The notes: generated by a model from the sequence alone, not told the origin. 64,000 nt of DNA from Euglena gracilis (GCA_039621445.1 CP154954.1:39021816-39085815), one strand, 5' to 3'; numbered from the stretch's first letter, positions 3,929 through 36,655 are shown. A program made the numbers and translations.

Positions 3929-6780
3929 CATCGTGTGTCGCAGGTGGCCAGGAATCCCAGGGTGCCGGGGCCATAGGGACTGGGGCCCAGAATGGCGGAG
4001 GATAAGGGTGGCCGGGGGCTGTGGCCGGGGTCACTGCAGGGGTCGGGGCCCAGGGTGGCCGGGGGCTGTAACAGGGGTCGGGGCCAGGGTTTTTTTTAAG
4101 ACCGGGGGGGGCGGTCGGTACCCACCCACCCACCCCCTGGGGTGGGGCCCTCCCAGGGGGGGGGGTCCCGGGGGACCCACCCACTTTTACCCGAAAATGC
4201 TAAAAATAGCACCTTTTAAAAAAAATTCGGTCGAAAAAGACATACCCACCAGCCCCTGCCCCCGCCCCCCGGGGGGGGGGGGGGGGAGGGGGTCCAAGGC
4301 CAAAAAAAAAACCACTGGTCGGGTCCCAGGGAGGCCAGGTACGCTGCGGGGATGAGGCGGGGCTGCGGGGTAGCTTCCCCGGTGCCGAGCCGGGAACCCT
4401 CGCTCGGCCAGGGCGAGCCGAGGCCAAGCGAGGTCATCCGGACACGGCCCGGGGTTGCCGGTACGCTGTGGGGGTTGGGGCCATACCATTGCTTAGCGAC
4501 CCCCGGGGGGGGAGGGGGGGTCACTTTCCACTCCGAAAAAACCAGTCAGTCACCCCCCCCCGGGGGGTGGGGTGGGACAGGTGTTAAGCAACGGTCTGGT
4601 CGGGGCCCAGGGTGGCCGGGGCAGGTGAGGGTGGGGTGGGTGGTGGTTGTGGTTGTGGTGTGGGCTGTGGGCTGTGGCCATGGAGTCGGCGGCGGAGAAG
4701 CGGCAGCGTTTGCGTCGGGGATGGTGATGCGGCGGGCTCACTCACAGGCAGGCCCGTGTTCTTCTGCAAACACAGCCAGGGTTTTATGGAACGCGCCAGA
4801 CCTTTTTGAGATTTGGAGTATCCCCAAAATCGCGGTTTCAGATTTGGGCTTTTTGGGCTTCGTCCCACGACGGGTATTTTAGTGCTTTTCTTTTTTGGGG
4901 GATGAAAACATAAAAGACCATAAAAAACATGTTTTTCAATGCAAATGTCAGGGGAAAAACTTTTTGGGTCGCAAACAGAGCGTTTTTTTAAATGACCCCC
5001 CAGGGGATCCAGCTCAGAAGTCGGAAAATTAGGGCTGGCTGACCCCTTCCACCCCCCTAGGGGTCCCTGGAGGGAAAAAGGCTGCTGGCAGGTTGGCCCC
5101 CGGAGGAGGTTAAATTTTCTGAAGGTCTTTCTGGTCCTGGTTGCAAGTCCACCCATGGCAACCCCCCCTGGGGGTTGGACGGGGGTGCAGAACATCTTGA
5201 GCAGGGAAGGATGGGAAGCCTTGAGGGGGGGGGGGGGGTCGGACCCCCCCCCTCCTACCTCGAAACTGAGGGGGGGCGGAAAATTTTTCGATTTCATGGA
5301 CGGACAAAGGGCCGGAAAAAGGGTCGAAATTGGTCAAAAATCCCTGATTTTTCTTTGAAAATCGACCCAAAAATGCTCATTTTTGAAATTTTTTGAACAT
5401 TTTTTGGGGGGAAACACCAACACATCAAAAAATGGGCAATATGTCCAAAAGTGAGCAAAAGGGGTGTTTTTTGCTCATTTTCCGGCGCACAGCGCCGGAA
5501 GAAAATTTTCTGCTATTTTTGGCACCCGTCAAGGAGGGGGGGGTGGGGGGTCCGGACCCCCCTCCCAACATCTAGGGGGGGGGGGGTCCGGGGTGGTCCG
5601 GACCCCCCCCTACCACCTCAATACCGCCTCAATACCGAAGGGCTTCCCATCCTTCCCTGACCTTGAGACAGAAGGGTGGGGATGGTCTGCACCCCTCCCC
5701 CCCTGCACACAAAACCAACTCACTCGGCACCCTGCCAGAGACCCACCAAAAACAACAACAAAAACTGCACAGAGCATTGGCCAATTCTCTACCACTGTGT
5801 GTGTGTGTGTGTCAGCATTTCTGGGAAAAGCAGGGCGTCGCTTAGCGACCTTGGGGGGGGGGGGGGTCGAGTTCATTCGGGCTGGCTGGAAAAAGGCTGC
5901 TGACTGACCTTCCCATGGCGGCCCATCAGCTGGAGCCCAACCTGGGGTCGAACCGGGTAACAAAAAATAATCGAAACACCAAAATGTCCAACAAACTGTC
6001 AATTACCACAATCAAAAATTGCCAGTCAATTGCAAAAATGGAACTTTGACCGCAGATTTGCCATCAGAAGCAAACAAACCCGATTTGGGATTTGCCGAGG
6101 AGGGGAGCAGGGAGGTCCGGACCCTCCCATCCCAACATCCAGCTCCCCACCACCTTCCTTAATGCCGACAGGATGGGATTCAGCCTGAAATCCCAACCCT
6201 GGGGGGGGGGAAGGGGGGCCTCGGAGTGCCGTGGAGTGCCTGGGCAGACAGCCCCCCCCCCCCGGGGTCGGTGCCTGCCTGGCCGTGGACCAAAAAGCGC
6301 CCAACAATGGGTTTTTCTGGGCATCCGGCGCCTGAGGCACTGGAAGGGCCTTGGCCAAGTGCCCAGGCAGTTTTGCCTCAAGGTGCCTGCCCGGGCCGAG
6401 GGTGGGGTCGGCACCGCCTTAGAAAGTCAGCCTGCTTCCCATCTGTCCCTGGGGGTGGGGCCTTCGGTTTCAGCGACGCCCTGGTTCCAACCCCAGCAAC
6501 CCCCTCCCAGGACCGCCGAGTCCTTTGAGCAAAGGGGGAAAAAAACAGTGGCCTGGCTGAAACTGGGGAACCGGGGTGGGGGCACTGAAGGCTGCAGGGC
6601 GAGATGTCCGGTGGGCGACGCTGTGGTCGGCGGCGGAGCTGTGGGCGATGCTGTGGCGCAGGCGTCGGAGGCGTTGGCCAAGGGCGAGATGTCCAGCGGC
6701 GGCGTTGGCCACGGCAGTCGGCGGAGGCAGCGTCGTCCGGCCGCCGGATCAGGGCGCACAGCCACGCTGGGGGCCAGCAC
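3929..6780 (-). CDS. Probable internal exons of a second, Pro-rich low-complexity protein gene (partial)
   Basis: Exons about 67xx-6559, 4739-4602, 4476-4321 and 4079-3929 join in one open frame when two MITEs are removed by the same 3+5 rule (EPAASPSP...ATLGP|NPHSVP...ASLGP|DPCYSP...PATHD). GT donor at 3928. GC-rich sequence leaves the frame and outer limits ambiguous; further exon-like blocks lie near 3030-3101, 2500-2770 and 420-580. Confidence 0.45.
4085..4317. mobile_element. hAT-like MITE, family A (CAGGGTTTTTT...AAAAAACCCTG type)
   Basis: TIR-bounded; flanks gtcggggc/gtcgggtc (7/8 TSD). Confidence 0.85.
4482..4598. mobile_element. hAT-like MITE, family B (CAnACCATTGCTTA)
   Basis: cataccattgctta ... 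taagcaacggtctg; flanks gttggggc/gtcggggc (7/8). Confidence 0.85.
5202..5659. mobile_element. hAT-like MITE
   Basis: Perfect TIR cagggaaggatgggaagcc; flanks atcttgag/accttgag (7/8). Confidence 0.9.
5831..6483. mobile_element. MITE-like element
   Basis: 12-bp TIR cagggcgtcgct; no recognisable TSD. Confidence 0.55.
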
Positions 6781-6833: not shown

Positions 6834-7388
6834 CAGGCTTGTATGGGAATCTCTGGGGGGGACCCCTTCCAAAAACTGGGGGGTGGGGGGACTGCTTGTG
6901 CTTACCGACCGGGAGGGGGGGGGGAGGAGGGTGGGTGCTACAGGGTGCCTGCCCCCAGTGGGCACCCCCCCCTCTGGGTCTTGAGGGGCCCAGAAAATTT
7001 TCATTGAAAATGGCCTCTTCCGGGCCCCTGGCGCTTTCAGCACCAGGGATTATTTTTTCGCCCGAAGTCCCGGCCCGAGGGGGGAGGGGGCATTATTTGG
7101 GGGGGGGGGGGTTTGCACCCCAAAATTTTCAAAATTTTTCGAAGTTCCGTAAGACCCAAATTAGCACCAAATCCCCCTTTGGTTTCGATTTTTTTTTGTA
7201 ATTTGTTGTTAGAGATTGTGATTTTTACCCAATTTTTCAGTCAAAAAAAATCCGGGTCGGCCCGAGATTGGGGGGGGGGCGAAGTCGGACCCCAAGGACT
7301 ATTATTTGGGGGGGGGGTATTATTTGGAGGGGGGAATATTTAGGAGGAGGGTTTACCTCATGTCTGCGGAGCTTCCCATACAACCCTG
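6834..7388. mobile_element. MITE, family C (CAGGsTTGTATGGGAA)
   Basis: caggcttgtatgggaatctc ... cttcccatacaaccctg; same ends as 13892-14413. Confidence 0.8.
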
Positions 7389-10301
7389 GGGCTGGTTGGC
7401 TGTGATGTGATGCATCACCATTCAGGGAGGACAGCAATCGGAGTGCAGGTCCATTGCGCATTTTTGCCCCCCCCACGGGAAGCACGGGGTTTCAGGTGTC
7501 CCTGCGGTGTCCCTGTGGCATTGCCGAAAAAATCCACCGCGTTTGAAGTTGGGTGCACGGTTCGCTCCTTTGCTGGGGAGGTTTTGGAGTGTTCCGGCTT
7601 GGGATTTGAGTCAGGATTCAGGGGAGGTGGGAGAGTTGGCACCTGCTGCCGGGGGGAGGGGGGTTGGGGGAGCTGGCTTGGTGCAATTTTGCGGAGCCAA
7701 AAATGAGGGGCACTCCGGGGGGGGGGGTGCCCACCCTGCCCCCCAATCCAACCAAAAAAAAGCTTCTCAAATCGGAGGTGCATTGCATCACAGTCAGCCC
7801 GTGGCATGGCCAGGCCAGAACAGGGAACCTGGGGATTGCAACCCTCCCACCCATGCACATGCACAGGTCTGCGGCGATTCACAAAATTCAGACCATGGCA
7901 CCAAACGTGCCGGGGCAAATTTGTAAAGCGAAATATTCAACTACCACCTGCCACCCAACCCCAATTGACGAATTTTTCCTTTCGGCGCTTTGGAACATGA
8001 AGCATGAATGAGACGGGATGGGGGCAAATTGGTGAGACAGGGAGATTTTTGGGCAAAAAAACCAAAAAAATTAGCACTTTGATCAATCCTTGGTGGATTC
8101 TGGGCTCAAACTTATTCGGCCCAGAACTTTGCGTCGGGCCAAAAATCTGGCCAAATGTTCGAAAAGGTGCCCCCTGACCTGATTGGGGGGAGACAATATC
8201 GTTGGACATGAGGAGGGGCACAATGTGGGGACAAGGGGACCCTCCCACCCCAAAAAAAGGCCAGGCCATTCCAGTTCTGGTCTGGGCACAGAGGTGGGGG
8301 GGGGGAGCTGGCTGGGTAATCACCGTGAGAGACGAGTTTGCGTCAATGGCCAAAGATGAAACAAACAAATACCAAGGCCCCCCATATAAGACCCCCCCGG
8401 GTTGTTGGCTTCCGGGGCCTCATATGGGGGGAACGTGGTAATTGGCCAAACCCCAGCCTTCCCAAACGCCGAATTTCCCCTGCGACTGCTTTTCTTCCTA
8501 CAATGTGTGCAGAATGTGTGCAGGCTTTCATGGGCCTTGAAAGCGGTTATATTTTTTTGTGGCATCCCAAACAGGCATGTGCTTACGGTGGGTGCCAGAA
8601 GGTGCCCCCCCCCAGGGTCCGGGGGGACCCAAAAATTTTTCATTGAAAAGTGGCCTCTTCCGGGCCCCCGGCACCTTCAGCACCAGGGTCGGAGGGGGGT
8701 GCCAGCTGTGGGCACCCCCGAAAACCCCTACCTCCACCCCCCGGGGGGGGGGGGGGTCCGGCGGGGGCCCCCCCCCCCGTGGGGAGGGCAGGCACCCAAC
8801 TTTGCACAAACCTGATTCCAAACTCAGTTTCTTCACCAAAGGGGAAAAATCAACAAGAGAATTCAGTCAAAACTCAACCCTCCAGGGAGTACCCAGCCAC
8901 GGGGGGAATTATAGCACAAAGTGGAGCCCCAATGCTCCCCCCCATACCCCATACCCCCCATACCCCCCCCGTACCCCATACATACCCCATACCCCCCATC
9001 CCCCCAAATTTTTTTGCCTGAAACCATGTTTTTTGGGCCTCCCGGACCCATAAAACCTGTTTTCGCATTGAAATTGAGTGCTTTTCGGTGTTTGAATCAA
9101 AAAGGGGCAAAAAAAGTCAAAAAATCCAAAAAATTGTGTCCGAAAACCATATCTTTTTTGCCTCCCAAACCCGAAAAACCTGTTTGAGCCAAAAAATGCC
9201 CGTGTGACGTATGCAACTGTTCCGGTGCTGGGGGGCAGGGGGGGGGGGCGGACCCAGCAACAAAAATAAACCTCATCTTTGTTTACCGACTTTTTTGCGG
9301 GCAAATCGCGCGTCGTATGAAACTGTTTGTGTGTCCGGGGGCCATAAACCTCATAAAAAAACGTCCCCAAACCCCCCCCCCAAACTCCATACCCCCATCC
9401 CCCCCCGCCATTCCCCAGGTATGGGCCCCACTTTGTGCCACGGGGGGGGGGGGGTGTTGTTCCCCCCATTCTGCTCCTCCACCACGCCCATGGGCACACT
9501 GGGTGCCAGCCCCACAGTCTGATCGATAGACAGTCCGATCGGATTGAACCAAGGATTGCAAGCAGGGTCATTCTCAGGAAACAAAAATTGATAATTTAAC
9601 CAATATGCAAACATGTGCATGCATATATGTGGTGTGCGCAGGTGAAATATAATGCATATTTTACACTATGTGTCCATCCATATCTATCTCAATGTCCATC
9701 GGTGTGCATATTGTGCATTCTTGCATCTTTTGTGTGCAAACGTCAGTGTCTTTGAGTGCATGTTTGCAAGGTGGACATAAATTTGTAATGCAATGTATTA
9801 CAATCCTTGGGTGGGTGGACCTGCGCGTGGGCAACAACGCTGGATCAACCACAGGGCTGCACAAGGAAAGCCATGTGGGCACGTTTGCTTTTCAAGGACT
9901 GGACCCCGGTGTCCAGGAGCCCAGCCAGCAGACAGCTGGGCCAGGTCATGCCCCAAACAGGCAAAAAAAAACCAAATCCAGTCAGGTTGGCATTTGGCAG
10001 GCAAAATCTGGAGGCAAGGAACCCCCAAAATCTCTCGAAAAACGCCATTTTTGGTCATTTTTGAGCAAACACGTCCTGGCGCAATGCATCGGGAAAAAAA
10101 GGTCCAGCCGGCTTTGTTGCTGGCTGGACTGCTCAGCGAATGGAACGACCTCGAGAATTGGCGCCTGTGGAAACCTGGGAAAGGCTGGGGGGTCAACCTC
10201 CCCCCCCCATCCCCACTCTCATTGGGGTTCCGGGATTCCCATTCCGCCCTGGCCATCGACCTGTGGTCCTGCGTGCACCGTGCTGCTCAGCCTCACGGCG
10301 T

Positions 10302-13300
10302 TCACCGGTGCAGCTTGTGCTTCAGCTTCCGCCACGCCCTTTTCAGGGCGTTGGGCCGTGCGCAGGGCACAGCGCCATGCGCCGTTGCATTTCCCTGGGC
10401 CAGGGGGTAGCTTGAGGATCGGGGGTCTCAGAGGCTGGAAAACTGGCTTGGCTGGGAAAAGGCTGCTGGCTGGGTGGAGCCAGGTTCGATCTCAGGGCAG
10501 CTGGGGGTGGGGGGTCCCGGGAACTTGATCCGGGCCCCCCTTGGCAGGGTGTTCCAGGAGGGGGGACACCCCCCCACCTGAACCCTGTGCACCCTCCTCA
10601 TATCAAACCCTGGGCTGGAACCCCCCCAATGGGATCAAATTTTCTTAAGCTGCGCCCTAACCTGAAAATTGCCAACCCCCCACCAAAGCCAAAGCTGGGC
10701 AGCGAAAAGGAAAAAAAAATCAAACCCGTGAACCGCCCCGAGCCAAAGAGACCAAAGAGAGACCCCCCAAAAAATGCTTAATATCTCCAAAAACATATTC
10801 TCCTATTTTTTTAACCTGAATTTTCTTTGCATGTAAATTTTTATTTGTTTTCAAGTATTCTTTATCACCCACGGGAAGAAACTTCCTGGACAGGAAAGCA
10901 GGGGATTCTAGCAACTCTTTTGAAAAACGCTTGACAGGAAAATGGATTTCGACCCCAGCCCCAGATGGGCTGTGTTATGCATTGAATGCGATTGTTGCTC
11001 CTTCCCCATCCATTTGGAAGGGAGCAGGTGGATTTTTATGACCGGGGAGGGGGGGTCCCCCTCCCCCCCCCCCGGGGGGTCCCCCCCGAGGCGGGGGGGG
11101 GGGGGGCGTCCCAGGGAACTTGCCGAAGAATCGCGAACAGTGCTAACAATGGCACTTTTTCAAAATTTTCGGCGCCAAAGGCACCCAAAAGTACATCCCG
11201 TTCCCCTCCAGGGGACCCCCCCCCCAGGGGGGGCTCAGCCGGACCCACCCACCCTACCCCCCCCAAGGGTCCACGGCTTAAAAAAACCCCTGGAAAGGAG
11301 GATAGAAGACAGAAGTCGTATTTTGTTTTGTGCTATGTGCCCTGGCTGGGGTTGCGCCACCGCTGCTGCTTCAGCGGCCGGCGCGGCCGGCGGCTCCGGC
11401 GCAGCCGGCGGCTCGGCCGGCGGCGCGGCTGGCGCGACAGCCGGCGCGGCTGGCGGCGCAGGCGGTTCCGCACGCCGGGCAGCGACAGGCCGTTGCCAAA
11501 GATGGAGGGGGTGGGGTGGGATTTGGTCTGGGACCAGACTTTCAGTTAGTGTGCTTCAGGAAGTTCTGTGCGGCGCACAAATTTTTTTCTGCGGCGCATG
11601 CAGCGCATGGACAAAGTTTTGCTGCGGTGCTTGCGGCGCAAAATTTTTTTTTGCTGTGGCGCTTGGGGCGTACACAATTTTTTCCTGAAATTTTATTGTG
11701 GTGCACTTTGAACCACAAAGGCGCTCTCACACCCAGGCTTTGGGCAAAGCTGTGCTTCACCATGGTAGCACCAGCCTCACTGTTATCAAAAAAATGTTGC
11801 TGTGGCGCTTGCGGCGCTCGGAATTTTTTTGCTGCGGCGCATGCGGCGCATGGTGGATTTTTTGCTGCGGCGCTTGCGGCGCATGGTCAAAATTTTCCTG
11901 CGGCGCTTGCGGCGCACAGAAAAAAATTTTGTGCGGCGCACTAACTGAAAGTCTGTCTGGGACTTCCACCAGAAGAGGGGGAGCTTGGCACCCTGTCGCT
12001 TCTTCAAGGAAACCCTGTGGAGGGGTGGACTGAACAAACTTTTTTAAAACTGATCCCACGGGCCACATCCACCCAATAACCAGTCAATCAGATTTATTTT
12101 GAAACCAGTCAGCCACTCTGGAATCCACATAGAAATAGACCACAACTGTGAAAAAAACTGTAAAAAATTTTCTGGCAGAGGGGGGCCAAAAACTGGTCCC
12201 TCACTGGGGTGAGGTCGGGATCAGGGTTTTTATCAAGACTGGGGGGGGTCCCCCACCCACCCCAGGGGCCGAAAAATTGCGAAAAATGCTAAGAACAGTG
12301 CATTTCTCAAAAAGTTTCAGCACCTTCAGCTCCGAAAAGTATATTTCACCCCTGGGGGAACCCCCGGGGGGGGCTCCACCCACCCTGCCCCCCCAGGGGG
12401 TCCAAAACAAAAAAAACCCTGGTTGTGGTTGGGAAGGATACTCCAGTGAGTGGTGAGTGATTGTCCGCGTTGGACTTGCAATGCAGAAAGGCAGGAGGAG
12501 GGGCAGTCCGTCAGGAAGGGCCTGCCCGGCAGGCCACAGCCGGCGCCGGATCTCCCGCACCACCGCCTTCGCCTTCGCCACGGGCCCGGGCGGCGGCGGC
12601 GGCGGCGGCTGCGCGTCCCTCCACCGCTGGAGGGGCGTGGTGGGGTTGATGAAGGGGGCGGGCACTTGGCCGCAGGCCGGTCCCCCCGGCACCCACTTGG
12701 GGGGGGGGACAAACCGCCCGCGAGGTTTGGAGAAGTTTGGACCGCCTTCAAATTTTGAGCCGAAAGGCATACATTGGACCTGACAGCAACCCAATCAGGA
12801 AACGGGGGGAGTGCAACGAGGCGATTCAAAAAAAAAACATGTGACGCCTGCAAATTCCGTTTACCTGCATTTCAACCCCAAAGGTTCGCCAGGTCCAGCA
12901 CTTTTGCCGTTCGATGATAAGGGCTTTTGGCGCATTCATCCGTGTTTCCAGGCTGTTCCAGGCATGTGAAATTCTTTTTCCCTGAGGAGGGGAACATTGA
13001 CCAACTGGGAGGGGCCGGAAAAAAAGGGGGGGATGGGCCTGGCCCCAGCAGCAGGGCGTGGACGGCAAGGTCGCCCATGCCGCCCGCCGCGACTGCCCAC
13101 GTGTGGGCAACGCGGAGGGCGGCGTAGGCGGCGTTGTGCCGCCACGCCCTGGCTCAAAGGGGACAGGAGGAGGGAGGGGACCAGGCTGTTTTTTTTACCA
13201 ACCTGGGGGGGGGTCCAGAGTGTCTTGGAAGCCATACCAAAAATGTTGAAAATCCCTTGATTTTTCTTCGAAAATGAATTCCTTGAAAACTGTGAACAAT

Positions 13301-14509
13301 TTAGCTGGGAACGCACCAAACCATCAAAAAAATGGACAATATGCTCAAAACCCAGCATTTTTGTTCATTTTCTGGCGCGCCAAAAAAAATATTTTTGCCA
13401 CAAAGAAGGGGGTCAGGATCCCTCCCCCAACATGCAGGAAGGGGCCCCCCTCACCCACCTTCAAACCAAAATGCTTCCGGTCCATCCCTGGGGAGGGACC
13501 AGGGGAGACGCCAAGCCAAGCCAACCGGTCACAAGAGGGGGGGTGAGCCAAGGTGTGGCCCGCCGTAGCCGTTGCCCTCGACTTGTTCGCGCAGGCGGCG
13601 GTCGATGGCGTGGACGATGGCGGCGGCGGCTGGCGGCGGGGGGCCCTCTGCCTGGGGGGGGGGGGGTGGGGGGGGGGTTGGATTTGGATGAGAGACAACT
13701 TGCAGTTGATCCACCGAACCCGTTGGGGATTGCGACTCTACTTGAAGGGAACCCTCCCCCCCCCCTTGAAACGAACCAACCGCAAAGGGCCCCCCGATTG
13801 CGGTGCACGGGTACAGGCCCGCGACCCACCGCAGCCGCGGCCGCAGGCAGTCCACGTACAGCCAGCTGTACGTGGAGACCACCGCCAGCCGCAGGCTTGT
13901 ATGGGAATCTCGGAGGAGGAGGGGACTGGAGGGGGTGAGGGGAGGGGGATCCCCCCCTACCTCCAGTGTTCGGTCACCGAAAATTTTTGGCCCTGTTTGG
14001 ATCAAAAAATTGATTTTTTTTGAAATTTCTCTGAAATGGTGCAGTGGTGGGGAATGAAAGATGGGGAATAAAGAGGTGTCAGATGCCTTAATTGAAGCCC
14101 TTGAAATGCCAATTTGATTTCCTCTCAACTCCCCACCTGACCCAAATTACAGCCATTTTTCGACCAATCTTACCCATTTTGCCAAAGTTTCATATTGAGC
14201 TTCAAGAGGGTCCAAAAATGCACACCCAACGTGAAGCGCCGGAAAATTTTTATTTGCCGCTGCAGAGGAGGGGGAGGGGGGTGGGGGACCCCTTCGGAAA
14301 CCGGGGGGGGGGGGTGGGAGTGGGGGACCCCCCTGCCACCTCACTCCCCTAGGGGGGGGGGACCCCTACCACCTGTCTCACATCTGTGGCTGTGGAGTTC
14401 CCATACAACCCTGGCCAGCCACGCCAGCGTGTTGGCCAGGCGGCTGTCGGTGGTCGGCAGGATCAACAGCAGGGCCCGTTGGTAGGTCAATGCCAGGGGT
14501 TTTTTTAAG

Positions 14510-14564
<55 letters not shown>

Positions 14565-14819
14565 GGGGGTCCCGGGGGACCCACAAAAAAAATGGCCGAA
14601 AAATCGCGAAAAGTGCTAAAAATAGCATTTTTTCGGCGCCTGCGGCGCCGAAAAGTATATCCCACCCCCACTGGGGGGGACCCTCCCCCCCCGGGGGGGG
14701 GGAGGGGATCCGGCGGACCCACCCACCCTACCCCCCCCTCCCCCCCCGGGGGTCCAAACTTAAAAAAATCCCTGGTCAATGCACCTCATGATGATGATGA
14801 TGATGATGATAGCAATAGC

Positions 14820-14859
<40 letters not shown>

Positions 14860-17800
14860 ACAATGATGATGATGGTGATTAAAAAAAAGAAATTATTCAC
14901 ATCTCAACAAAACATGTTGACTCGATTTGCCGGGGGTTAACAGCACCAATCTAACCCCCAGTCAGGGTTCGATATAAGGACAGGTGGGGGGGGGTGGTCC
15001 GGACCCCCCCCCCCCTGCGGGCCAGGAGGGGGGGGGGGGGGGGGGGGCAACCCCCCCCCCCCAAACCATGTACGCCCTCCTTATATCAAACCCTGCCCCA
15101 ACAAAAAAAACCCAGACTTCCAACGTTTTGTCAAATTCCTTTGAGTGAAACGCAACGCTGGCAGTGACTCAAACCCAATCATCTGGGTTGTGCTCCCAAA
15201 TTCCAACTTTCCTTTTCTCTGACCCCAAATGCCAACGCCAATGGGCTCTGTGTGTCCAGCCCGCAGCAACGATCGGGGCGAGCAGCAGGGGCACCAGCCA
15301 CCAGCCGCGGACCTGTGAGAGGGAAAACGATATGAGATGATGAATTCCCCCTCGCCGACTAGGAAAATGGCAACCAAAAATAATGCAGTGCAAACAAAAT
15401 GTGTGCTTTTCTGCGAGTCAACCCACAAAATGCAAAACATTTGGGGGAGTGACGTCAGAAGATCAGGTTTCTTTTCACCAACCTGGGGGGGGCCCTGTGC
15501 TTTGTGCCTCTCGGAGCCTGCAGGCCAGGCCAATTTTCGGAGGCCAATCCATTCGGCGCCGGGGGGGGGGGCAGGCTGTTTTTTACCAACCCCGGGGGGG
15601 AGGGGGGGTCCGGAGTGCCTGCCCAGGCAGGCACTACCCCCCCCCTGGGGGGGTCGGATTTCGGCCTGTGCCCGGGCACATTCCTTTGAAAATAGGCCAT
15701 TTTTGGCTCCCCGGCGCCTTTGGCGCCGGGGTTGTGCTAGGGCACTTTTGGCCATGTGCCCTACCCCCCCCCCCCGGGGGGTCGGATTTGGAGTGCTTTG
15801 GGGTGCCTGCCTGGGCAGGCACCCCCCCCCCCGGGGTGGGGTCGACACCCGACTAAAATACAGCCTGGGGGGGGTCCCAAAACCCGACCCCCCCCCAGAG
15901 GGGTCGAAAATGCCCTATATTTGGCGCATTGCGGGGATTAGACAGAAACCCATGCGCATCCCTCACCATCGTCATTGCCTTTAGAAAGCTGCACGGCACC
16001 AAATTTGTCTTCTTTTGAATATTATCAGTTTTTGATTCATTCTGGAGAAAATTGTAAGCACACCCCCACCCCGTGTTCGTTGCGCGGGGTGGTCGTCCCT
16101 CCGCAAAGAACAAAAAAAAAACAGCCTCCGCGCGCCTGCGCGCTCTCGAACTGTGAGGGGCAGGGGGCATTCGAGGGTGTAAATCTGAAACACAGCCCAG
16201 GGGTCTCCGGACCCCCATCCCTCGGGCAGGGTACTAAATGAGTGGTCAAAAAAAACCCCAAAAATTGAGTTTTCGCACATGTTTTTTTTGAAAAATCAGT
16301 CAAACAATGCACCACTCATTTTTTTTTACTCTTTTTGGGTTCCCGGGGGTCCCAGACCCCTCTGTCTGAACGGGTCTGGACCCACCCCCCCCCCCCCCCG
16401 GGGGTCTAAACCCTCTTTCCCCGTACTCCCCCCCCCCCCCCCCCCCTCCAACCACCTTCACTCCTCACTCCAACACAAGAGAAAAAATTCTCCATCAGGC
16501 AAATTTTCGATTTTGCAATAATTAATTGACCAAAAAAAGAAAAAAAGACAAAAAATGACAAAGGGTTGACAGAATTTTTGGCCTCGGGGGAAAATCCAGG
16601 ACAAACCGAGCAATTTTTGATTGTCAAAAAGACCTTGACCCTTATCTTTACCCAAACCCTTTTGAAACTCGAAAACAGGGAGGAGGAAACCCACAAAATG
16701 CAAAAAAAACAACAACAACAACAACAACAGACATAAAAACACAAATTTTATCAAAATAGAAAAACACAAAAAAAATGCAAAAAAACAATTGTGTTCCCCC
16801 CTGCCTTCCCCTCCCCTTGCAAAAACTAACGCTCGGTGATTTGTTCTGCCCCCCCCCCCCCCGATCCCCCCTTTGCAAACCTGGACCGGCCCCAAACCCA
16901 GCGACCTCCACACAATCCCCACAGGGTCTTCTGAGTTACCCGCCCCCCCCCCCCTCCATTGTTGTACGACCGGGTTCCTGCAATCTGTGACCGGGGGGGG
17001 GGGGTCGTAACACCCCCATGACCTGCAGCTGGTGTCCGGGGGGTGGTCGTAAATGAGGGGTGGCTGTACGACAGGGGGGGGGGGGCGGGTAATTATGGGC
17101 CTGGCCACCATGCTCGAAATTCCACTTCCCCCACAGGTGGCTTTGAAGAGAACTGTCCAGGCTGAGTCCAGAATTTAAGGGGACGGGGGTGCACAATGCA
17201 AATGAAAAGAGACTTGGAAGCAAAGCACAAGGCAGACCACACCGTGGCGAAGCGGCAGGCCGGGCACAGCGGCACGCTGCGCCCGGCGACCTCCGCCTGC
17301 ACCATGCCCAGCCGGCGGTGGTGGTCCCACGCCCTTCGTTACTTTGTCATTGTGTTGACATGCATGGGAACCTTGACAGGCAGGTGGGGTGGCACTCCCC
17401 CCCCCGCAGAAATACCCCCGCCCCCCCCCCCCAAGTCAGTTAGTTTCCTTCCAACCGAAAATGGCACTTTTGACAGATATTTGTAGTCAGTTTTGCATTT
17501 GTCTGGTTACCACGGCGCACATTTAACAGAAGGGCACACATTTAAGGAAGGGCGTGGGCGGCAGCGGGCACAGAGGCCCGGGTCCGCCACCACATGGCGG
17601 ACCTGGATCTCCTTCGCCGCCCCCAGGGCAGAACGGGAAAGCCTGGTGGGGGGGGGGACGACCCCCCACACAGGAGGCGGGCGTTTGACCCCCCACCCCA
17701 CCACAGCAATTTCCCAGATTTTGTATTAGATACCATGGATGGACCATACATAAATAACATATTTTTCCCCGTCGCCTTTGGCGCCGGAAAAAACTTTGGG

Positions 17801-20800
17801 GTCGAAAACTGGTGTTCCCGGAAACACGGTGGTGTGGTGGGGCGGTCGACCCCCCCCATCCACCACCCTGTCTGTTTGGCCACCCGTTCTGCCCTGGTTG
17901 TCCGCTCAGCGGGGGTCTCAAGGAGCCACCAATACTCGGCGTCAGGCTGCTTTTTGTTTGTTTTGCTTTGTTGTTTCGATAAACACCACAAAAAAAAAAC
18001 ACAGCCTGCTCGAGCAGCTGCCGGATCCCACGCAGTGGGTCGGCAGCGCGGCGCGCGCGGGCCAGCAAGTTTTGGGGCGGGTGGAGCTGATGTTGCCCCC
18101 AGACCCTGCTGGACTGATGGGGGGGGGGGCTTCACCACAATTGCAATGCAGGCTTTTTTCCTACACCTCTGCGGGGTGTGAAACTCTCAGAACGAAAACC
18201 TCTGGCGGGAAGGCATGGACTTGGACCTTCTTGGATATCCAAATGACACCCCCCCCGGTGTGTTATTTGGGCACCCGAGCTGGGTCCCGGGGGGGGTTCT
18301 TTGGGGGGGGGGGTTGTTTTTTACATGGGAAACCAAAGGAAATCAGGGGTGTGTGTCATTGGGGCGCTCGAAATCGGCCCCCGAGGGGGGAGGGGAGTTA
18401 TTTGGGGGGGGGGGAGTTTATTTGGGGGGTTCAAAAGAAACCTGAATTGTGAAATGGAGACAAACAACACAAAAAACCCAGAGAAATCTCCCCTTTCTTT
18501 TGTTGCAAAATTTTTCAAAGTCAAAAACCCTTGTGGAGTTTGACTGCGAAAAACCACAGGGGGGTCGACCCCCTACTGAGCAATGCAAAACTGCCAGGTG
18601 GGGGAGGGGGCTTCAAAGAATCCAATGCAAGGAAAAATATTCGCATCCCTGTCCAACCCCCCACACCGGAGGAGAAGAGGACACACAGAGGAGCGGGCAA
18701 CCATCCCTCCTGGGGTCCACTCTTCCGAAAACCGGGCAGTCACCAAGCACCAGGCAGGTTGGAAATCCAGCCCCCCCCCCCCCGGGGTCAGCTGCTTTGG
18801 AGTCTGGAACGGGAAAAAAAAATGGCAAAAAATTTTTTTGCGGCCGGGTCACCTTTGCGACGACTTGGTCTGGGACAAAAACGAGTCAGTGATCCCCCCG
18901 GTTTGGTGAAGAAACTGTGAAGGCAGGAGTGAGGTGCGGGAAACCCTTTGAAATTTCGACAATTTTTGATCAAAAAAACTTTGGCTGATTTTTGGCCACT
19001 TTTGGGTTCAAATTTTTTTGGCCTTGTGGTTTGCGCCAGGACGCCGTGTCTGTGAAATGCAGGGGGGGGTCATTGGACATAACGGGGTCGTGAGCACAAG
19101 GGGGGGGTAATTGATTGTGTGTACCGGTCGTCTGTTTTGATGCCCGATACTATCCAGGCCACCGGGGCCTGCGTGGCGATCCTGCTCGTGCTCCGCTGCC
19201 TCCTCGTCCGCTTCCCGCAGGAGCACGGCGGGGGCGACGTAGGCGGCGGGTGGCGGGACCTGTCGAGAAAATGAATTGAGATAGTGGAAAAGCCCCAAGA
19301 CATACCCACACGTACACTGAGAAGACATAGCTGACCCTTGAACCACTGCTGGTGTTTAACCAGCAGTCGTTCCGGTGGCAATGAGGTTTTTGGGGCGGGG
19401 AACCCAGCCGACCTGGTCCCGGGGGCTGGTCGCACTTTTTGGCACCCCCAATTTCCTGGCATTGAGGCAATCTGGCCCCAAAAAATCCCGCCCCCCCCAC
19501 CCCCACCAGCCGCCCCGAATTATACTGAAAAAATTGCCAAAATTTCGCTATTGCGGGGTGTTTTACCAGCAGTGGATCCGGTGGCAGTGGGGTTTTTGGG
19601 GGCGGGGAACCCAGCCGACCGACATGGTCCCGGGGGCTGGTCGCACTTTTTGGCACCCTCCAATTTCCTGGCATTGAGGCAATCTGGCCCCAAAATCCCG
19701 CCCCCCCCCCCACCACCACGAGCCGCCCCATATTATACTGAAAAAATTGCCGAAATTTCGCTATTGCGGGGTGTTTTACCAGCAGTGGATCCGGTGGCAA
19801 GAGGGTTCTTGGGGGCGGGGAACCCAGCCGACCTGGTCCCGGGGGCTGGTCGCACTTTTTGGCACCCCCGAATTTCCTGGCATTGAGGCAATCTGGCCCC
19901 CAAAAATCCCGCCCCCCCCCCACCCCACCCCCACCAGCCGCCCCGAATTGTACTGAAAAAATTGCCCAAATTTCGCTGTTGCGGGGTGTTTTACCAGCAG
20001 TGGTTCCGGTGGCAGTGGGGTTTTTGGGGGCGGGGAACCCAGCCGACCTGGTCCCGGGGGCTGGTCGCACTTTTTGGCACCCCCGAATTTCCTGGCATTG
20101 AGGCAATCTGGCCCCAAAAAATCCCGCCCCCCCCCCCACCCCCACCAGCCGCCCCGAATAATACTGAAAAAATTGCCAAAATTTCGCTATTGCGGGGTGT
20201 TTTACCAGCAGTGGATCCGGTGGCAAGAGGGTTTTTGGGGGCGGGGAACCCAGCCGACCTGGTCCCGGGGGCTGGTCGCACTTTTTGGCACCCCCCAATT
20301 TCCTGGCATTGAGGCAATCTGGCCCCCAAAAATCCCGCCCCCCCCCACCCCCACCAGCCGCCCCGAATTGTACTGAAAAAATTGCCGAAATATCGCTATT
20401 GCGGGGTGTTTTACCAGCAGTGGTTCCGGTGGCAGTGGGGTTTTTGGGGGCGGGGAACCCAGCCGACCTGGTCCCGGGGGCTGGTCGCACTTTTTGGCAC
20501 CCCCCAATTTCCTGGCATTGAGGCAATCTGGCCCCCAAAAAATCCCGCCCCCCCCCCACCCCCACCAGCCGCCCCGAATTGTACTGAAAAAATTGCCAAA
20601 ATTTCGCTATTGCGGGGTGTTTTACCAGCAGTGGTTCCGGTGGCAGTGGGGTTTTTGGGGGCGGGGAACCCAGCCGACCTGGTCCCGGGGGCTGGTCGCA
20701 CTTTTTGGCACCCCCGAATTTCCTGGCATTGAGGCAATCTGGCCCCCAAAAATCCCGCCCCCCCCCACCCCACCCCCATGAGCCGCCCCGTACTGAAAAA

Positions 20801-27602: not shown

Positions 27603-27809
27603 CACACCATTGCTTAGCGACCCCCTGGGGGGGGTCACGTTCCATTCTGAAAAAACCAGTCAGTCACTGTACCCCTGAATAGGAGAAATCAAAAAAAATC
27701 CGGCGCCTTTGGCGCCAGGCCAGCCACTTTTCGTCACCCCCCCCCCCCAGCGGCGTCAGTCACCCCCCCCTTCGGAGGTGGGGTAGTCCAGGTGTTAAGC
27801 AATGGTATG
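27603..27809. mobile_element. MITE, family B
   Basis: cacaccattgctta ... taagcaatggtatg; perfect TSD gccagcag. Confidence 0.92.
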
Positions 27810-27846: not shown

Positions 27847-28286
27847 CAGGGTTCGATATAAGGACAGGTGGGGGGGGGGGTGGTCCGGACCCCCCCCTGC
27901 GGGCCAGGAGGGGGGGGGGGGGGGTGGGGGGGCGCCCCCGCCCACCTAAACAGGTGCGCGGTCAGGGTGGCCGAATTTTCGGCCCGGCGCGAAGCGCCGG
28001 GCCGAAAATTTTTGACCCCCCAAAACGACCAAAAGTGCCATTTTGGGCACTTTTGGGGCAAAAATGTGCCAAAAATGCAAAAAATTTTCGGCGCGAAGCG
28101 CCGGAGGAAAAAATTGACCCTTTTTGGGGGGGGTCAATTTTTGCCCCCGAGGGTCGGTCCGGACCCCCCTTGCAGGTGGGGGGGGGGGTGGTCCGGACCC
28201 CCCCCCGCGGGCCAGGAGGGGGGGGGGGGGTGGGGGGGGACCCCCCCCCACCTAAACCATGTACGCCCTCCTTATATCGAACCCTG
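27847..28286. mobile_element. MITE, family D
   Basis: Perfect 18-bp TIR cagggttcgatataagga; perfect TSD ggccaggg. Confidence 0.95.
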
Positions 28287-28294
28287 GGCCAGGG

Positions 28295-31200
28295 TGACCC
28301 TGTGCGCCGGCGTGGGGAGGGAGCGTCGAAGGGGGAGGGCAGCGGGGCCGGCGACCACCACGTGATGCGGTGGCAGGGCCGTATGGGAATCTCGGACGAG
28401 GGAGTGGGGGGAGCACCTTTCCAAAACTGGGGGGGGGGACCCTGCCAAGTTTTCGGTCGCCGAAATCTTTGTCCGTTTTTCAGGTTAAAAAAAATCAGTT
28501 GCTCTGGGAATTTCTCTCAGAAATGGCAGGGAATCAGAGGAAATGTCAGGAAATGTCAATCCAACAGTATTTTGATTTCCCCGCAACTCCCTGCCTGTCC
28601 CGAGCTACGGCCATTTTTCGGCCATTTGCCAAAAATTCATGCTGACCCTCAAGAGGGCCCCAAAATGCACACCCGGCGTGAAGCGCCGGAAGATTTTTGT
28701 TTGCCCCCCCCTTCCGCCACCTTGCCCCCCTTGGTGGGGGGGGGGGGGTGTGCTACCACCAACCTCTGTATGCGGAACTTCCCATGCAACCCTGTGCGCC
28801 GGCGTGGGGAGGGAGCGTCGAAGGGGGAGGGCGAGGCGAAGGGGGAGGGCGAGGCGAAGGGGGCCGGCGATCACCAGGTGATTCGGCGGCACGGTCGTAT
28901 GGGAATCTCGGAGGAGGGAGGGGGGGAGCGCCCTTCCAAAACTGGGGGGGGTCAGGGTTCGATATAAGGACAGGTGGGGGGGTCGGAGCGGGCCAGGAGG
29001 GGGGGGGGGTGGGGGGGGGACAACCCCCCCCCCACCTAAACAGGTGCGCGTCAGGGTGGGAATCGGCCCGGCGCGAAGCGCCGGGATTTTTGACCCCCAA
29101 AACGACCAAAAGTGCCATTTTGGGCACTTTTGGGCATGTGCCAAAAATGCAAAAAAATCGGCGCGAAGCGCCGGAGGAAAAAATTGACCCTTTTGGGGGG
29201 GGTCAATTTTTGCTCCCCGGGGTCGGTCCGGACCCCCTTGCAGGTGGGGGGGGGTGGTCCGGACCCCCCCTGCGGGCCAGGGGGGGGGGGGGGGGGGGGG
29301 GACACCCCCCCACCTAAACCATGTACGCCCTCCTTATATCGAACCCTGGGGGGGGGGGGGGGGTGGGAGGACCCAGTTTTTTTTCGCCGAAAATTTTGGC
29401 CATTGTCCAGGATAAATAAAAAATCAGTTTTTTTTGGTGTCTCTCAAAAATGGCAGGGAATCAGAGGCAATGTCAGGAGAACTAAATTGAAGAACTGAAA
29501 GTTCACAATCTAACAGGATTTTAATTTCCTGCCAACTCCTCACCTGTCCCGAGCTACGGCCATTTGTGGCCATTTGCCAAAAATTTCATGCTGACCCTCA
29601 AGAGGCTCCCAAAATGCACACACGGCGTGAAGCGCAGGAAGATTTTTTTTGCCCCACACCCCTTTCCGCCACCTTGTCTCCAGGGGGGGGGGTGTCCGGA
29701 CCCCCCCTGCCGGCATGGGGAGGAGCGTCGAGGGGGAGGGGGTCGAAGGGGGGGTGGCGGGGCCGGCGATCACCAGGTGATGCGGCGGCAGGGCCGTATG
29801 GGAATCTCGACGAGGAGTGGGGGGGAGCCCCTTTCCAAAACTGGGGGGGGGGGACCCTGCCCAGTTTTCGGTCGCCGAAAATTTTGGCCGTTTTTCAGGT
29901 TAAAAAAATCAGTTTTTTTTGGTGTCTCTCAAAAATGGCAGGGAATCAGAGGAAATGTCAGGAAATGTCAATCCAACAGTATTTTGATTTCCCCGCAACT
30001 CCCCACCTGTCCCGAGCTACGGCCATTTGTGGCCATTTGCCAAAAATTTCATGCTGACCCTCAAGAGGGTCCCAAAATGCACACCCGGCGTGAAGCGCCG
30101 GAAGATTTTTTTTGCCCCCCCCCCCTTTCCGCCACCTTGCCTCCAGGGGGGGGTCCTCTGTCTGCGGAACTTCCCATGCAACCCTGTGTGCCGGCATGGG
30201 GAGGGAGCGTCGAAGGGGGAGGGAGCGTCGAAGGGGGAGGGTGGCGGGGCCGGCGATCACCAGGTGATGCGGCGGCAGGGCCGTATGGGAATCTCGGACG
30301 AGGGAGTGGGGGGGACAACCTTTCCAAAACCGGGGGGGGGGGGGGGCCGACCCAGTTTTTGTTCGCCGAAAATTTTGGCCGTTTTTCGGGTTAAAGAAAA
30401 ATCAATTTCTCTGGGAAATTCTGAGAAATGGCAGGGAATCAGAGGAAATGTCAGGAAAATCCATTGGAGTGCCCATCCTTGAATTCCATTGACCCTGCGG
30501 CGGGGGGGGGGGGGGGGGGGGTGCTACCACCAACCTCTGTAGGAACTTCCCCGTGCGCCGGCGGGGGGGGGGCGAGGTTTGGTTCGGGCCCAGGGAATTT
30601 CGCGGAGGTCCCTCAAAAATGTCCAAAATCCAAAAAAAAATTAAAAAAAAATCAAAAAATCAGAGAACCAAATTCCCCAAAAATCCCAACTTCCATGCAA
30701 CCCTGTGTGGGGGGGGAGGGAGCGTCGTGGGGGGGGGGCGTGAAGGGGTAGGGGAATCTAATGGGAGGAGTGGGGGGGACAACCTTTCCAAAACCGGGGG
30801 GGGGGGGACCCTGCCCAGTTTTCGGTCGCCGAAATCTTTGTCCGTTTTTCAGGTTAAAAAAAATCAGTTGCTCTGGGAATTTCTCTCAGAAATGGCAGGG
30901 AATCAGAGGAAATGTCAGGAAATGTCAATCCAACAGTATTTTGATTTCCCCGCAACTCCCTGCCTGTCCCGAGCTACGGCCATTTTTCGGCCATTTGCCA
31001 AAAATTCATGCTGACCCTCAAGAGGGTCCCAAAATGCACACCCGGCGTGAAGCGCCGGAAGATTTTTGTTTGCCCCCCCCCCCCCTTCCGCCACCTTGCC
31101 CCCCTTGGTGGGGGGGGGGGTGTGCTACCACCAACCTCTGTATGCGGAACTTCCCATGCAACCCTGTGCGCCGGCGTGGGGAGGGAGCGTCGAAGGGGGA

Positions 31201-32730
31201 GGGCGAGGCGAAGGGGAGGGCGAGGCGAAGGGGGCCGGCGATCACCAGGTGATTCGGCGGCACGGTCGTATGGGAATCTCGGAGGAGGGAGGGGGGGGAG
31301 CGCCCTTCCAAAACTGGGGGGGGGGGTGTTGGAGGACCCAGTTTTCGTTCGCCGAAAATTTTGGCCATCGTCCGGGTTAAATAAAAAATCAGTTTTTTTT
31401 GGTGTCTCTCAAAAATGGCAGGGAATCAGAGGAAATGTCAGGAGAACCAAATTGAAGCCCTGAAAATGCCCAATCTAACAGTATTTTGATTTCCCCGCAA
31501 CTCCCCACCTGTCCCGAGCTACGGCCATTTGTGGCCATTTGCCAAAAATTTCATGCTGACCCTCAAGAGGGTCCCAAAATGCACCCCCGGCATGAAGCGC
31601 CGGAAGATTTTTTTTGCCCCCCGCCTTTCCGCCACCTTGCCTCCAGGGGGGGGGTCCTCTGTCTGCGGAACTTCCCATGCAACCCTGTGTGCCGGCGTGG
31701 GGAGGGAGCGTCGAAGGGGGAGGGAGCGTCGAAGGGGGAGGGTGGCGGGGCCGGCGATCACCAGGTGATGCGGCAGCAGGGCCGTATGGGAACCTTGGAG
31801 GAGGGAGTGGGGGGGGAGCACCTTTCCAAAACTGGGGGGGGGGAGGACCCTGCCCAGTTTTCGGTCGCCGAAATCTTTGGCCGTTTTTCAGGTTTAAAAA
31901 AATCAATTTCTCTGGGAAATTCTGAGAAATGGCAGGGAATCAGAGGAAATGTCAGGAAATGTCAATCCAACAGTATTTTGATTTCCCCGCAACTCCCTGC
32001 CTGTCCCGAGCTACGGCCATTTTTCGGCCATTTGCCAAAATTTCATGCTGACCCTCAAGAGGGTCCCAAAATGCACACCCGTCGTGAGCGCCGGAAGATT
32101 TTTGTTTGCCTCCCCCCTTTCCGCCACCTTGCCCCCCTTGGTGGGGGGGGGGGTGCTACCACCAACCTCTGTATGCGGAACTTCCCATGCAACCCTGTGC
32201 GCTGGCGTGGGGAGGGCGAGGCGAAGGGGGAGGGCGGCGGGGCCGGCGATCACGAGGTGATTCGGCGGCACGGTCGTATGGGAATCTCGGAGGAGTGGGG
32301 GGGAGCGCCCTTCCAAAACTGGGGGGGGGGGGGGGGGGGGACCTGGCCTCCGCCTCCCAGTTTTCGGTTGCCAAAAATTTTGGCCACTTTTCCCAGTACC
32401 AGAGAAATCAATTTCTCTGGGAAATTCTGAGAAATGGCAGGGAATCAGAGGAAATGTCAGGAAAACCAAATCGATTCCCCCGCAACTCCCTGCCTGTCCC
32501 GAGCTACAGCCATTTGTGGCCATTTGCCAAAAATTATGCTGACTCTCAAGAGAGCGCCGGAAGATTTTTTTTTTGCCCCCGCAGAGGAGGTGGGTGTGGG
32601 AGGACCCCCCTTCTGACACTGGGGGACTCTGCCACCTCACCCCCCCAGGGGGGGGTGACCCTCCCCTGCCACCTTCCTCATGTCTGCGCAACTTCCCATG
32701 CAACCCTGTGCGCCGGCGTGGGGAGGGCGG
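28295..32730. repeat. Macrosatellite of about 8 units (~500 bp), each a family C MITE plus a ~90-bp spacer
   Basis: Repeating cagggccgtatgggaatctc ... cttcccatgcaaccctg separated by tgcgccggcgtgggg...caccaggtgatgcggcgg. Confidence 0.9.
28953..29348. mobile_element. MITE, family D, nested in the macrosatellite
   Basis: Perfect 18-bp TIR; inserted in a G tract of unit 2; near-copy of 27847-28286. Confidence 0.92.
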
Positions 32731-35365: not shown

Positions 35366-36655
35366 CAGGGATGGTGTTTTTTTGGTTTTTTTCGAAAAAA
35401 ACCAAAAACTGTGTTTTTTTGTTTCAAAAAAACCACCGTTGGTTTTTTTGGATTAGGAATCGCGGTGTCTGGCTAAATCCTTGTATATCCTGATGCGTAT
35501 CGAGGATCCTACGTTGCAATGGGTATGCATTCTTTCATACAGCTTGGCCGACAGGTGAAGGTTACAGGGTGGGGTTCAAGTTATAAAAACAAGTGCGACA
35601 CGTCAATTTGACAAGTTTCAAGCTCCAAGTGATTTGCTTAAAGGTCAAGTGAGATAAAAGAAAAATGAATGAACTTGAGGACCTTCGCAAGGCGCTGCTG
35701 CAGAAGTTCGTCGTGATGTGCTTCAAGTAATTTGGTCCTATGTTTGAGTTGTTTCTGTTTCAGCTGTGTTTTGCCTTGCCCTGGGAAAAGCTCCTTAAAC
35801 AGTTTTTTGTCCACCCAAGCACATTCAACATTCACCCCCAGTTTGGTGCCACATTTTGGGCCACATCTTGGCCACAGCCGGGGGAAGCATTTTGGACCAT
35901 TCTGCTGTCCACATTTTGGCCAATTTAGTGCACATCTTGGGGCCAGAGTTTGGTGCACATCTTGGGGCCAGAGTTTGGTGCACATCTTGGGGCCAGTTTG
36001 GTGCACATCTTGGGGGCAATTTGGTGCCACAGGTGGGCAACATTTTGGTGCCACATCTTTTTGGGTCTAGCTTTCTGGCACATCTTGGGCACAGCTGTGG
36101 GCCACATCTTCGTCACAGATAGGGGCCACATCTTGTGTCCACGTGGCGGGAGTTTTGTGCCACAGGTTGGGGCAACATTTTGGAAACTTTTTGGGTCCAG
36201 TTTTCTGGCACAACTTTGGCACCAACATTTTGTGCCCCATCTTGGGGCAGTTTTGTTCCCCATCTTGGGGGAAAGTTTTGTACCACAGGGCGGTGGGTTT
36301 TTTTTTCCAGCCCGGGGTCCATGAAAACGGTCCTTTCTCTGGGGGCCGGGGGAAACAAGCCCTCGGCAGGGGGTGCGTCCAAGAGCGCAAAAAAAAAGTG
36401 AGAAACTGCTGTTTATTTTCCGGTCCCCAAGGCGCAAGTTTCCGGGTGACGTTGGGTCCAACTCAGACAGAGCCGTTCTTCTCATGCCTTTGTCCCTTCG
36501 GGGCGAGGGGCGAAGGAAACAAAAAAAACATTTTTTTTGAAAAAAACGGCGGGGGGCGGCGAAGGTAAAAAAACCGGTTTTTTTCAAAAAAACCGGGTTT
36601 TTTTCGAAAAAAACGTGTTTTAAAACGATCGGTTAGAAAACGAGGGTCATCCCTG
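35366..36655. mobile_element. Non-autonomous hAT-like DNA transposon (1.3 kb)
   Basis: cagggatg ... catccctg termini, A/T-tract subtermini, perfect TSD ccctgcat; internal ~25-bp repeats tttggtgcacatcttggggccagag (35840-36290). Confidence 0.9.

Follow-up and report, generated by a model that had tools for sequence, protein, structure and literature searches.

A predicted nonconventional intron of Euglena gracilis that coincides with a hAT-like miniature transposable element and one copy of its 8-bp target-site duplication

We analyzed a 64,000-nucleotide (nt) stretch of Euglena gracilis DNA (GCA_039621445.1 CP154954.1:39021816-39085815), here called the window, which has the character of euglenid-type nuclear DNA, with high GC content, many repeats, and two large satellites. 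On its minus strand, from 19259 to 10302, lies a putative protein-coding gene whose nonconventional introns would mostly be of the ordinary euglenid kind. [quoted passage not shown] Our favored reading, which we regard as probable, is that one intron of the gene (14416..13887) is such a MITE, removable from the RNA together with one copy of its TSD.

The element within this intron, the seventh of the gene model (530 nt, minus strand), occupies 13892-14413, is 522 nt long, and belongs to a family that we designate F1. Its terminal inverted repeats (TIRs) match at 16 of 20 positions, and it fills the intron from position +4 to position -6, so that the intron extends past it by 3 nt at the 5' end and by 5 nt at the 3' end. 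On the plus strand, the element is flanked by the TSD copies GCCAGCCG and GCCAGCCA, which agree at seven of eight positions. In gene orientation, both copies are cut 5|3 by the predicted splice sites, and the junction can slide by 7 nt with no change in the mRNA. The borders are GG..CT; thus, neither the element nor the TSD supplies spliceosomal GT/GC-AG sites. This is the sole intron repeated elsewhere in the window over nearly its whole length, with 84-88% identity to other F1 copies across aligned positions. Each flank carries a strong coding-phase signal (0.42 and 0.46), and the flanks are in phase only after removal of the element plus 8 nt, not of the element alone. Judged from the sequence, the cancellation of one TSD copy by the 3-nt and 5-nt spacers appears to be real in this intron, which is presumably spliced at the predicted sites.

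In the mechanism that we propose, the intron ends would pair as a stem starting at +4 with CAG and ending at -6 with CTG, and the RNA would be cut 3 nt before and 5 nt after that stem. Because the transposon's own TIR forms this stem and the spacers sum to the length of the TSD, a MITE copy lying in an exon could be cut from the RNA with one TSD copy, bringing back the reading frame that preceded the insertion. A transposon origin is supported for intron 14416..13887 and is plausible for the class as a whole. By this account, the match between 3+5 and 8 would reflect origin and not coincidence, older introns that lack a TSD would have arisen likewise, and the splicing machinery would read hAT ends.

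F1 also occurs in a tandem array on the minus strand at 28374..32708, in which exon-like units of 71-95 nt are each followed by an F1 element. These elements share termini and internal sequence with the element at 13892-14413, their flanks (TGCGGCGG/TGCGCCGG) match at seven of eight positions in most copies, and their minus-strand junctions place a pyrimidine before a purine at both ends, with a geometry like that of intron 14416..13887. The units measure 95, 89, 94, 89, and 71 nt, and unit length minus 8 is divisible by 3 in four of the five. One unit (31167-31260) is a single G short of its sister unit within a G-run, which breaks its frame and may represent either a homopolymer error or decay. 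Since tandem duplication gave rise to the array copies, we score them together as a single additional insertion. The array lies in a second gene-like region (26880-33030, minus strand) of tandem Pro/Ser-rich exon-like units with F1 elements, which ends in a hydrophobic, transmembrane-like stretch at about 26900-26960. F1 thus appears as an intron in the gene and in the array of the second region, within a small sample of 64 kb. Another 555-nt element (6834..7388) shares F1 termini and carries no recognizable TSD. When metagenomes were scanned with the right end of F1, 97 stretches matched, none of which (0/97) had the F1 left-end motif within 1.5 kb; these matches are therefore attributed to chance.

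Elements with 8-bp duplications are not confined to F1. Positions 1-49000 hold 894 CA...TG pairs whose TIRs match at 11 or more of 14 positions. Direct repeats flanking these pairs with no more than one mismatch numbered 37, 23, 10, 5, 3, 16, 0, and 1 at k = 3 to 10, respectively, and thus peak clearly at 8; of the 16 rows at k = 8, five arise from combinations in a single tandem array. The window contains 12 or more independent MITE insertions that have CA...TG ends and an 8-bp TSD; the 12 counted come from about eight TIR families, with TSD copies matching at 8/8 positions in six, 7/8 in five, and 6/8 in one. An unbiased scan for flanking 8-mers gave 66 rows, mostly low-complexity and palindromic matches. 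The first-pass annotation of this DNA had described MITEs of several TIR families with 8-bp TSDs, and this description holds, with all six of the perfect TSDs that it named being present.

Three of these elements are nested in introns of the gene. A free MITE of 281 nt (14494..14774; perfect 8-bp TSD GTCAATGC) sits in intron 6, beside its 3' stem, and is a nested element, not an intron by itself. A second free MITE, of 421 nt (11535..11955; 17-bp TIR, perfect TSD TCTGGGAC), is nested in intron 11, and a third element, of 268 nt (11025..11292; TSD 7/8), in intron 12. Beyond the gene, MITEs of 458 nt (5202..5659; TSD 7/8), 207 nt (27603..27809; perfect TSD GCCAGCAG), 440 nt (27847..28286; perfect TSD GGCCAGGG), and 505 nt (40026..40530; perfect TSD GTCCATAA) were found. 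Several MITE families contain long internal stretches of G or of C, reaching about 50 nt (e.g., 14511-14565 and 11070-11105), and nearly all of the RNA reads considered below fell on such stretches.

At positions 4042-4606, a short GC-rich repeat occurs in adjacent copies, two of which carry MITEs of different families inserted at one shared 8-mer. A 233-nt MITE (4085..4317) is flanked by GTCGGGGC/GTCGGGTC, and a 117-nt MITE of the second family (4482..4598; CAY...RTG ends) lies in the 8-bp target motif that it shares with the first. The intact repeat copy at 4042-4049 is an uninterrupted paralogue of the target and serves as the empty site, against which a clean, exact 8-bp duplication is seen. 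On the minus strand, both insertions would have pyrimidine|purine junctions in the 3-nt/5-nt register, with weak coding signal in the flanks.

These elements bear on whether the junction repeats could have come from double-strand-break repair instead of transposition. That is how the available text of PMC4770533 reads its own case, a young, strain-specific gapC intron of E. agilis with eight-nucleotide direct repeats at its junctions. For the present intron we consider such an origin highly improbable, since intron 14416..13887 belongs to a multicopy family with TIRs, other CAG...CTG elements in the window lie between different 8-bp repeats, and the paralogous empty site shows a clean 8-bp duplication.

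A non-autonomous element of 1290 nt (35366..36655) has ends CAGGGATG.../...CATCCCTG and a perfect TSD, CCCTGCAT. Its terminal 8 nt are identical at both ends, and A7/T7-rich motifs are repeated near the ends; we take these termini to resemble those of maize Ac/Ds. Like non-autonomous hAT elements, the CAG...CTG elements of the window combine an 8-bp TSD with short, CAG-starting TIRs and perhaps a weak bias toward T at position 2 and A at position 7 of the target, and A-rich and T-rich repeats lie near the ends of the 1290-nt element. The superfamily is assigned here by TSD length and termini; the P and Merlin superfamilies, which also make 8-bp TSDs, are possible alternatives. In a small sample of 24 TSD copies, T occupies position 2 in 9 and A occupies position 7 in 12, against a background of about 22-24%. 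This excess points toward the nTnnnnAn target preference of the hAT element Hermes, which makes 8-bp TSDs at such sites, according to the available text of PMC10368747. The hAT-like character claimed by the first-pass annotation is accordingly a reasonable label as far as TSD length, CAG termini, and the weak nTnnnnAn-like bias go; a transposase did not turn up among 10 long open reading frames (ORFs) of the 33-49 kb region (Pfam, E<=0.1).

The gene model was built from ORF pieces, stem scans, and assembly. Minus-strand positions 19259..10302 form a run of short, GC-rich, stop-free pieces whose frame changes between pieces; the gaps between them were scanned for a trinucleotide at +4..+6 complementary to that at -8..-6, and the best-paired candidates were joined. 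A broader stem scan tolerating G-U pairs gave 1514 pairs and was too noisy; its sole use was in spotting intron 11347..10358. The resulting model has 13 exons and 12 introns, 11 of them without GT-AG borders and one with. Exons 1 to 5 are at 19259..19175, 18094..18012, 17937..17900, 17618..17560, and 17322..17243; exons 6 to 9 at 15312..15254, 14464 (or 14488)..14417, 13886..13800, and 13631..13561; and exons 10 to 13 at 13137..13045, 12667..12528, 11480..11348, and 10357..10302, all on the minus strand. The stop codon that closes exon 13 (10304..10302) coincides with the lower end of the interval that had been annotated. Its upper end, 19259, lies directly after an AG acceptor-like site, and the model is 5' incomplete. 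Directly upstream of the gene on the coding strand is a 211-bp satellite (19351-26736; about 35 copies at 90% match), and the missing 5' exon or exons may be located within this satellite or on its far side.

With 3-nt and 5-nt spacers throughout and 14489 as the 3' end of intron 6, the joined coding sequence is 1152 nt long and has a terminal stop only, in agreement with the stop-free frame described at first. Its GC content at codon positions 1, 2, and 3 is 0.77, 0.57, and 0.85. Three checks that are independent of the trinucleotide rule carry much more weight than it does, namely GC3-GC2 phase, junction purine/pyrimidine bias, and minimum free energy (MFE) folds. By the GC3-GC2 statistic, the strand and phase of the model ranked first in 10 of 13 exons (chance, 1 in 6), second in two, and fourth in one Ala/Pro-rich exon. 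Nonconventional introns with 3+5 geometry are confirmed in silico in this gene. Their class matches the earlier description of introns without GT-AG, and their number is 11 in the present model, plus the one GT-AG intron, where nine had been reported.

All introns lie on the minus strand. Intron 1 (18095..19174; 1080 nt) has the form N3-CAG...CTG-N5|A and is the top-scoring stem of its gap, in frame and with conforming purine/pyrimidine junctions. It is followed by intron 2 (17938..18011; 74 nt; CAG/CTG, with a 7-bp terminal stem whose +4 and -6 positions pair in the MFE fold), intron 3 (17619..17899; 281 nt; CAG/CTG, with a 14-bp perfect terminal stem), and intron 4 (17323..17559; 237 nt), a CAC/GTG variant that is the sole in-frame candidate of its gap. 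The fifth intron (15313..17242; 1930 nt) is conventional, with GT-AG borders and a pyrimidine tract before the AG. Intron 6 (14465..15253; 789 nt) has a stem matching at 11 of 13 positions with its 3' end at 14465, and intron 7 is the F1 intron described above. Intron 8 (13632..13799; 168 nt) carries CGG/CCG and a 15-bp stem, intron 9 (13138..13560; 423 nt) is a second CAC/GTG variant, and introns 10 (12668..13044; 377 nt), 11 (11481..12527; 1047 nt), and 12 (10358..11347; 990 nt; 9-bp perfect stem) are CAG/CTG. Intron 6 has a second in-frame 3' end at 14489, at the end of the nested MITE 14494-14774. Across 14465-14489, this MITE end provides a second CTG-N5|R acceptor (R, purine), 24 nt upstream of the stem-supported one; it is possible that the transposon end created an alternative 3' site.

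The trinucleotides at +4..+6 and -8..-6 are CAG/CTG in eight of the 11 nonconventional introns, CAC/GTG in two, and CGG/CCG in one. The 3-nt and 5-nt spacers of the annotated geometry are those of the published code in the available text of PMC12501133. That code, with C-D-G/C-H'-G motifs, a 3-nt donor spacer, and a 5-6-nt acceptor spacer, is satisfied by nine. None of the 11 combines a GT or GC start with an AG end. A purine opens the intron in 11/11, a pyrimidine closes it in 11/11, and the downstream exon begins with a purine in 11/11, which bears out the purine start and pyrimidine|purine end reported at first; the upstream exon ends in a pyrimidine in 9/11. In total, 42 of 44 junction positions conform, on a strand whose purine fraction is 0.48. 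In whole-intron MFE folds, +4 and -6 are paired in 9 of 11 introns; the fold of intron 10 is shifted by two (+4 pairs with -4), and that of intron 1 lacks the terminal stem. Complementary end positions number 11-16 of 20 in ten of the 11 nonconventional introns versus 4 of 20 in the GT-AG intron.

A CAGG start is shared by 7 of the 11 introns and most MITE families. This could also be expected if descent ran the other way, with the MITE families derived from nonconventional introns that became mobile, for example, through a hAT-type transposase that recognizes end stems. We think this quite unlikely, as free copies nested in introns and in noncoding DNA have clean TSDs, as ordinary transposons would; the data here carry no signal on direction.

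Several results weigh against our favored reading. The trinucleotide rule plus frame is permissive when used alone, with 1 to 25 in-frame candidates per gap. A first pass with the published C-D-G motif gave a best stem that was in frame in only 6 of 11 gaps; two further gaps were settled by adding a 38-nt exon and by a last-exon frame ending at 10302. (For the last exon, the frame of the ORF at 10491..10222 was rejected; the frame ending at 10302 fits.) Tests of ORF continuity across MITEs are uninformative because GC-rich DNA is open in many frames. The two CAC/GTG introns fall outside the genetically defined C-D-G/C-H'-G code, and the available text of PMC12501133 allows a 6-nt acceptor spacer, which would not cancel an 8-bp TSD. 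No transposase accompanies the elements in the ORFs searched. Given so many compliant candidates, nondiscriminating continuity tests, and a product for which no homologues were found, the gene model itself might be an artifact, the rule giving in-frame junctions by chance in DNA that is open in many frames. We hold this to be very unlikely: strand and phase were recovered in 10 of 13 exons at a chance of 1/6, all 33 first-intron, last-intron, and first-downstream-exon bases conform (33/33), terminal stems appear in 9 of 11 MFE folds, and the frame reaches a stop exactly after the last junction.

The gene product adds to these reservations. Ten ORF pieces from the minus strand of the gene had no meaningful match in Pfam, a phmmer search with 13532-14146 (minus strand) against 1.84 billion representatives returned 0 matches, and a word search with exon 12665..12528, restricted to longer proteins, gave three candidates, none of which scored. 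No proteins spanning the junctions of the gene were found in the databases searched. Since the product is without detectable relatives, the gene could be decaying. RNA reads from two raw runs and contigs from two runs of presumed type were placed on positions 1-19340, with 4693 of 4710 reads (X6) and 186 of 189 reads (X10) being partial fits. These reads pile on poly-G/C and MITE parts, depth over the exons is about 0, and the 15 read joints listed, out of 269, are all repeat driven; the reads are thus without real coverage of the gene. One low-depth contig (X1) is unspliced through exon 15312..15254; the type of the X1 run is a guess, and it may be DNA.

Further counterevidence concerns the other ten nonconventional introns. 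When positions -5..+3 at the donor were compared with those at the acceptor across the 11 introns of the gene, as the first-pass annotation had proposed, intron 14416..13887 gave 7/8 and the other ten 0-4 of 8, with a mean of 2.7. Control comparisons in shifted registers (-6 to +6) gave means of 1.6-3.4, so that the value for the ten introns is background. The ends of these introns are also unique in the window, even though several contain nested MITEs. The proposal that splicing removes an element plus one TSD and restores the mRNA is supported by the sequence of intron 14416..13887 (7/8, cut 5|3) and finds no counterpart in the other ten. Across 14 elements, coding phase is consistent in three, all of them F1, and is strong on both sides only for the 14416 intron; in the remaining 11 of 14, it is weak or discordant. 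Only F1 is seen as an intron, and the further suggestion that many MITE families feed the intron population finds no support in this window.

These observations would be compatible with coincidence, in which the introns and the MITEs are unrelated, an exon of a dead or dying gene was broken by the F1 element (13892-14413), which stays unspliced, and 3+5=8 has no meaning. The protein has no detectable relatives, 10 of 11 introns lack a TSD, and a single family is found in coding sequence. We nevertheless judge coincidence unlikely. The F1 copy is 12-16% diverged, yet the 1152-nt frame has no internal stop, and strong codon-position GC bias is kept on both sides of the insertion. The F1 ends conform to every element of the published code, including pyrimidine|purine at both junctions, and the available text of PMC4770533 describes 8-nt repeats at the junctions of a young intron in E. 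agilis. We therefore retain as probable the reading of intron 14416..13887 as a MITE removable with one TSD copy.

Much of this reading has antecedents. Excerpts of PMC12501133 define a noncanonical splicing code, 5'-N3CDG-/-CH'GN5-6|R, by knock-in genetics; in them, CAG-CTG pairing is needed, the 3-nt and 5-nt spacers are required, and CGG-CCG is spliceable. They report that 71.8% of E. agilis introns are nonconventional and that direct repeats occur at 84.4% of all introns, they call the origin of the introns unclear and the factors unknown as of 2025, and they suggest MITE-like sources and a role in mitigating insertions. The terms TSD, "target site duplication," and hAT are absent from the main text of PMC12501133 in its available form. 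MITE-like insertion was proposed in 2013, when no transposons were known in euglenids, according to the available text of PMC3935182. TIRs at +4..+6/-8..-6 and "TSD-like" repeats are described in the accessible part of PMC11282704, in which hAT, "8 bp," and "8-bp" are absent; the accessible parts of PMC6221363 and PMC11170887 add nothing on a link between 8-bp TSDs and introns. In searches of the literature on Euglena introns, MITEs, TSDs, and hAT, we did not find the 3+5=8 identity, a hAT assignment, or an intron shown to belong to a free MITE family; data on sliding distances that accompany PMC12501133, as well as Table S3 of PMC4770533, may bear on these points.

Compared with the published nonconventional introns of euglenids (Milanowski et al. 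2013/2016; Nomura et al. 2025), which leave the mRNA as circles, those of this gene have the same motif positions, spacers, downstream purine, pyrimidine|purine junctions, and end stem, and there as here they are mixed with GT-AG introns in one gene; nothing differs in kind. What sets the present set apart is CAC/GTG in two introns, outside the code of PMC12501133, and the occurrence of one intron as a copy of a repeated TIR/TSD family, which was proposed but not demonstrated in the available text of those papers. For introners, and likewise in Amoebophrya, splicing removes the element and leaves one target copy, according to excerpts of PMC11282704 and PMC7789003. The introners of Micromonas, Aureococcus, and dinoflagellates and the noncanonical introners of Amoebophrya resemble the present case as TIR/TSD transposons turned introns that leave one target copy, with inverted ends that bring the junctions together. 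Those introners are spliced by the spliceosome at sites that either come with the element or are co-opted from TSDs of 3-5 nt, whereas here the junctions are non-GT-AG, lie at fixed distances from the TIR stem, and go with an 8-bp TSD. The hAT element Ds of maize uses cryptic spliceosomal sites for its removal from RNA, which is imprecise. Splicing of Ds from maize transcripts was reportedly found by Giroux and colleagues in 1994 (cited in PMC3935182), and such RNA-level removal of an exonic hAT-type element resembles what we propose here. Already in print, then, are the 3+5 code, the suggestion of a MITE origin, the TSD-like repeats, an 8-nt repeat at one recently gained intron, and the idea of tolerance; this locus adds families of euglenid MITEs that make 8-bp TSDs, a nonconventional intron that belongs to one such family, and an explicit match between spacer sum and TSD length.

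We note several further features of the window. A 78-79-bp satellite fills 49332-64000, with higher-order periods of 112, 190, and 407 bp, and shorter islands of it occur at 41010-41245, 42875-43305, 45751-46830, and 48847-49340. At 46840-48263, a 77-nt perfect inverted repeat surrounds 1.27 kb; its arms are internally palindromic and GC rich, its termini are non-CAG, and it may be a different transposon. A tRNA-like gene on the minus strand (39181-39254) scores 31.9 bits in Rfam, just above the gathering score; ARAGORN reads its anticodon as four bases and leaves the amino acid unassigned.

How the nonconventional introns of euglenids arose and how they are excised has been debated since the 1990s, and this locus makes the MITE hypothesis directly testable. 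In its broadest form, which we advance only tentatively and regard as doubtful at present, euglenid splicing would be a precise RNA-level excision matched to one transposon superfamily, its 3+5 spacers selected to sum to the hAT-like 8-bp TSD. A trans-acting factor would measure from the TIR stem, a hAT-like MITE landing in an exon would be neutral at once if position 6 of the TSD is a purine, and most of the roughly 70% of introns that are nonconventional in Euglena genomes would be decayed insertions. If the MITE hypothesis is true, direct repeats at the junctions of young introns should have a modal length of 8, introns and free copies bearing 8-bp TSDs should fall into common clusters, and a free MITE placed in an exon with one TSD should splice. 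The hAT superfamily would then be the place to look for the partner transposase.

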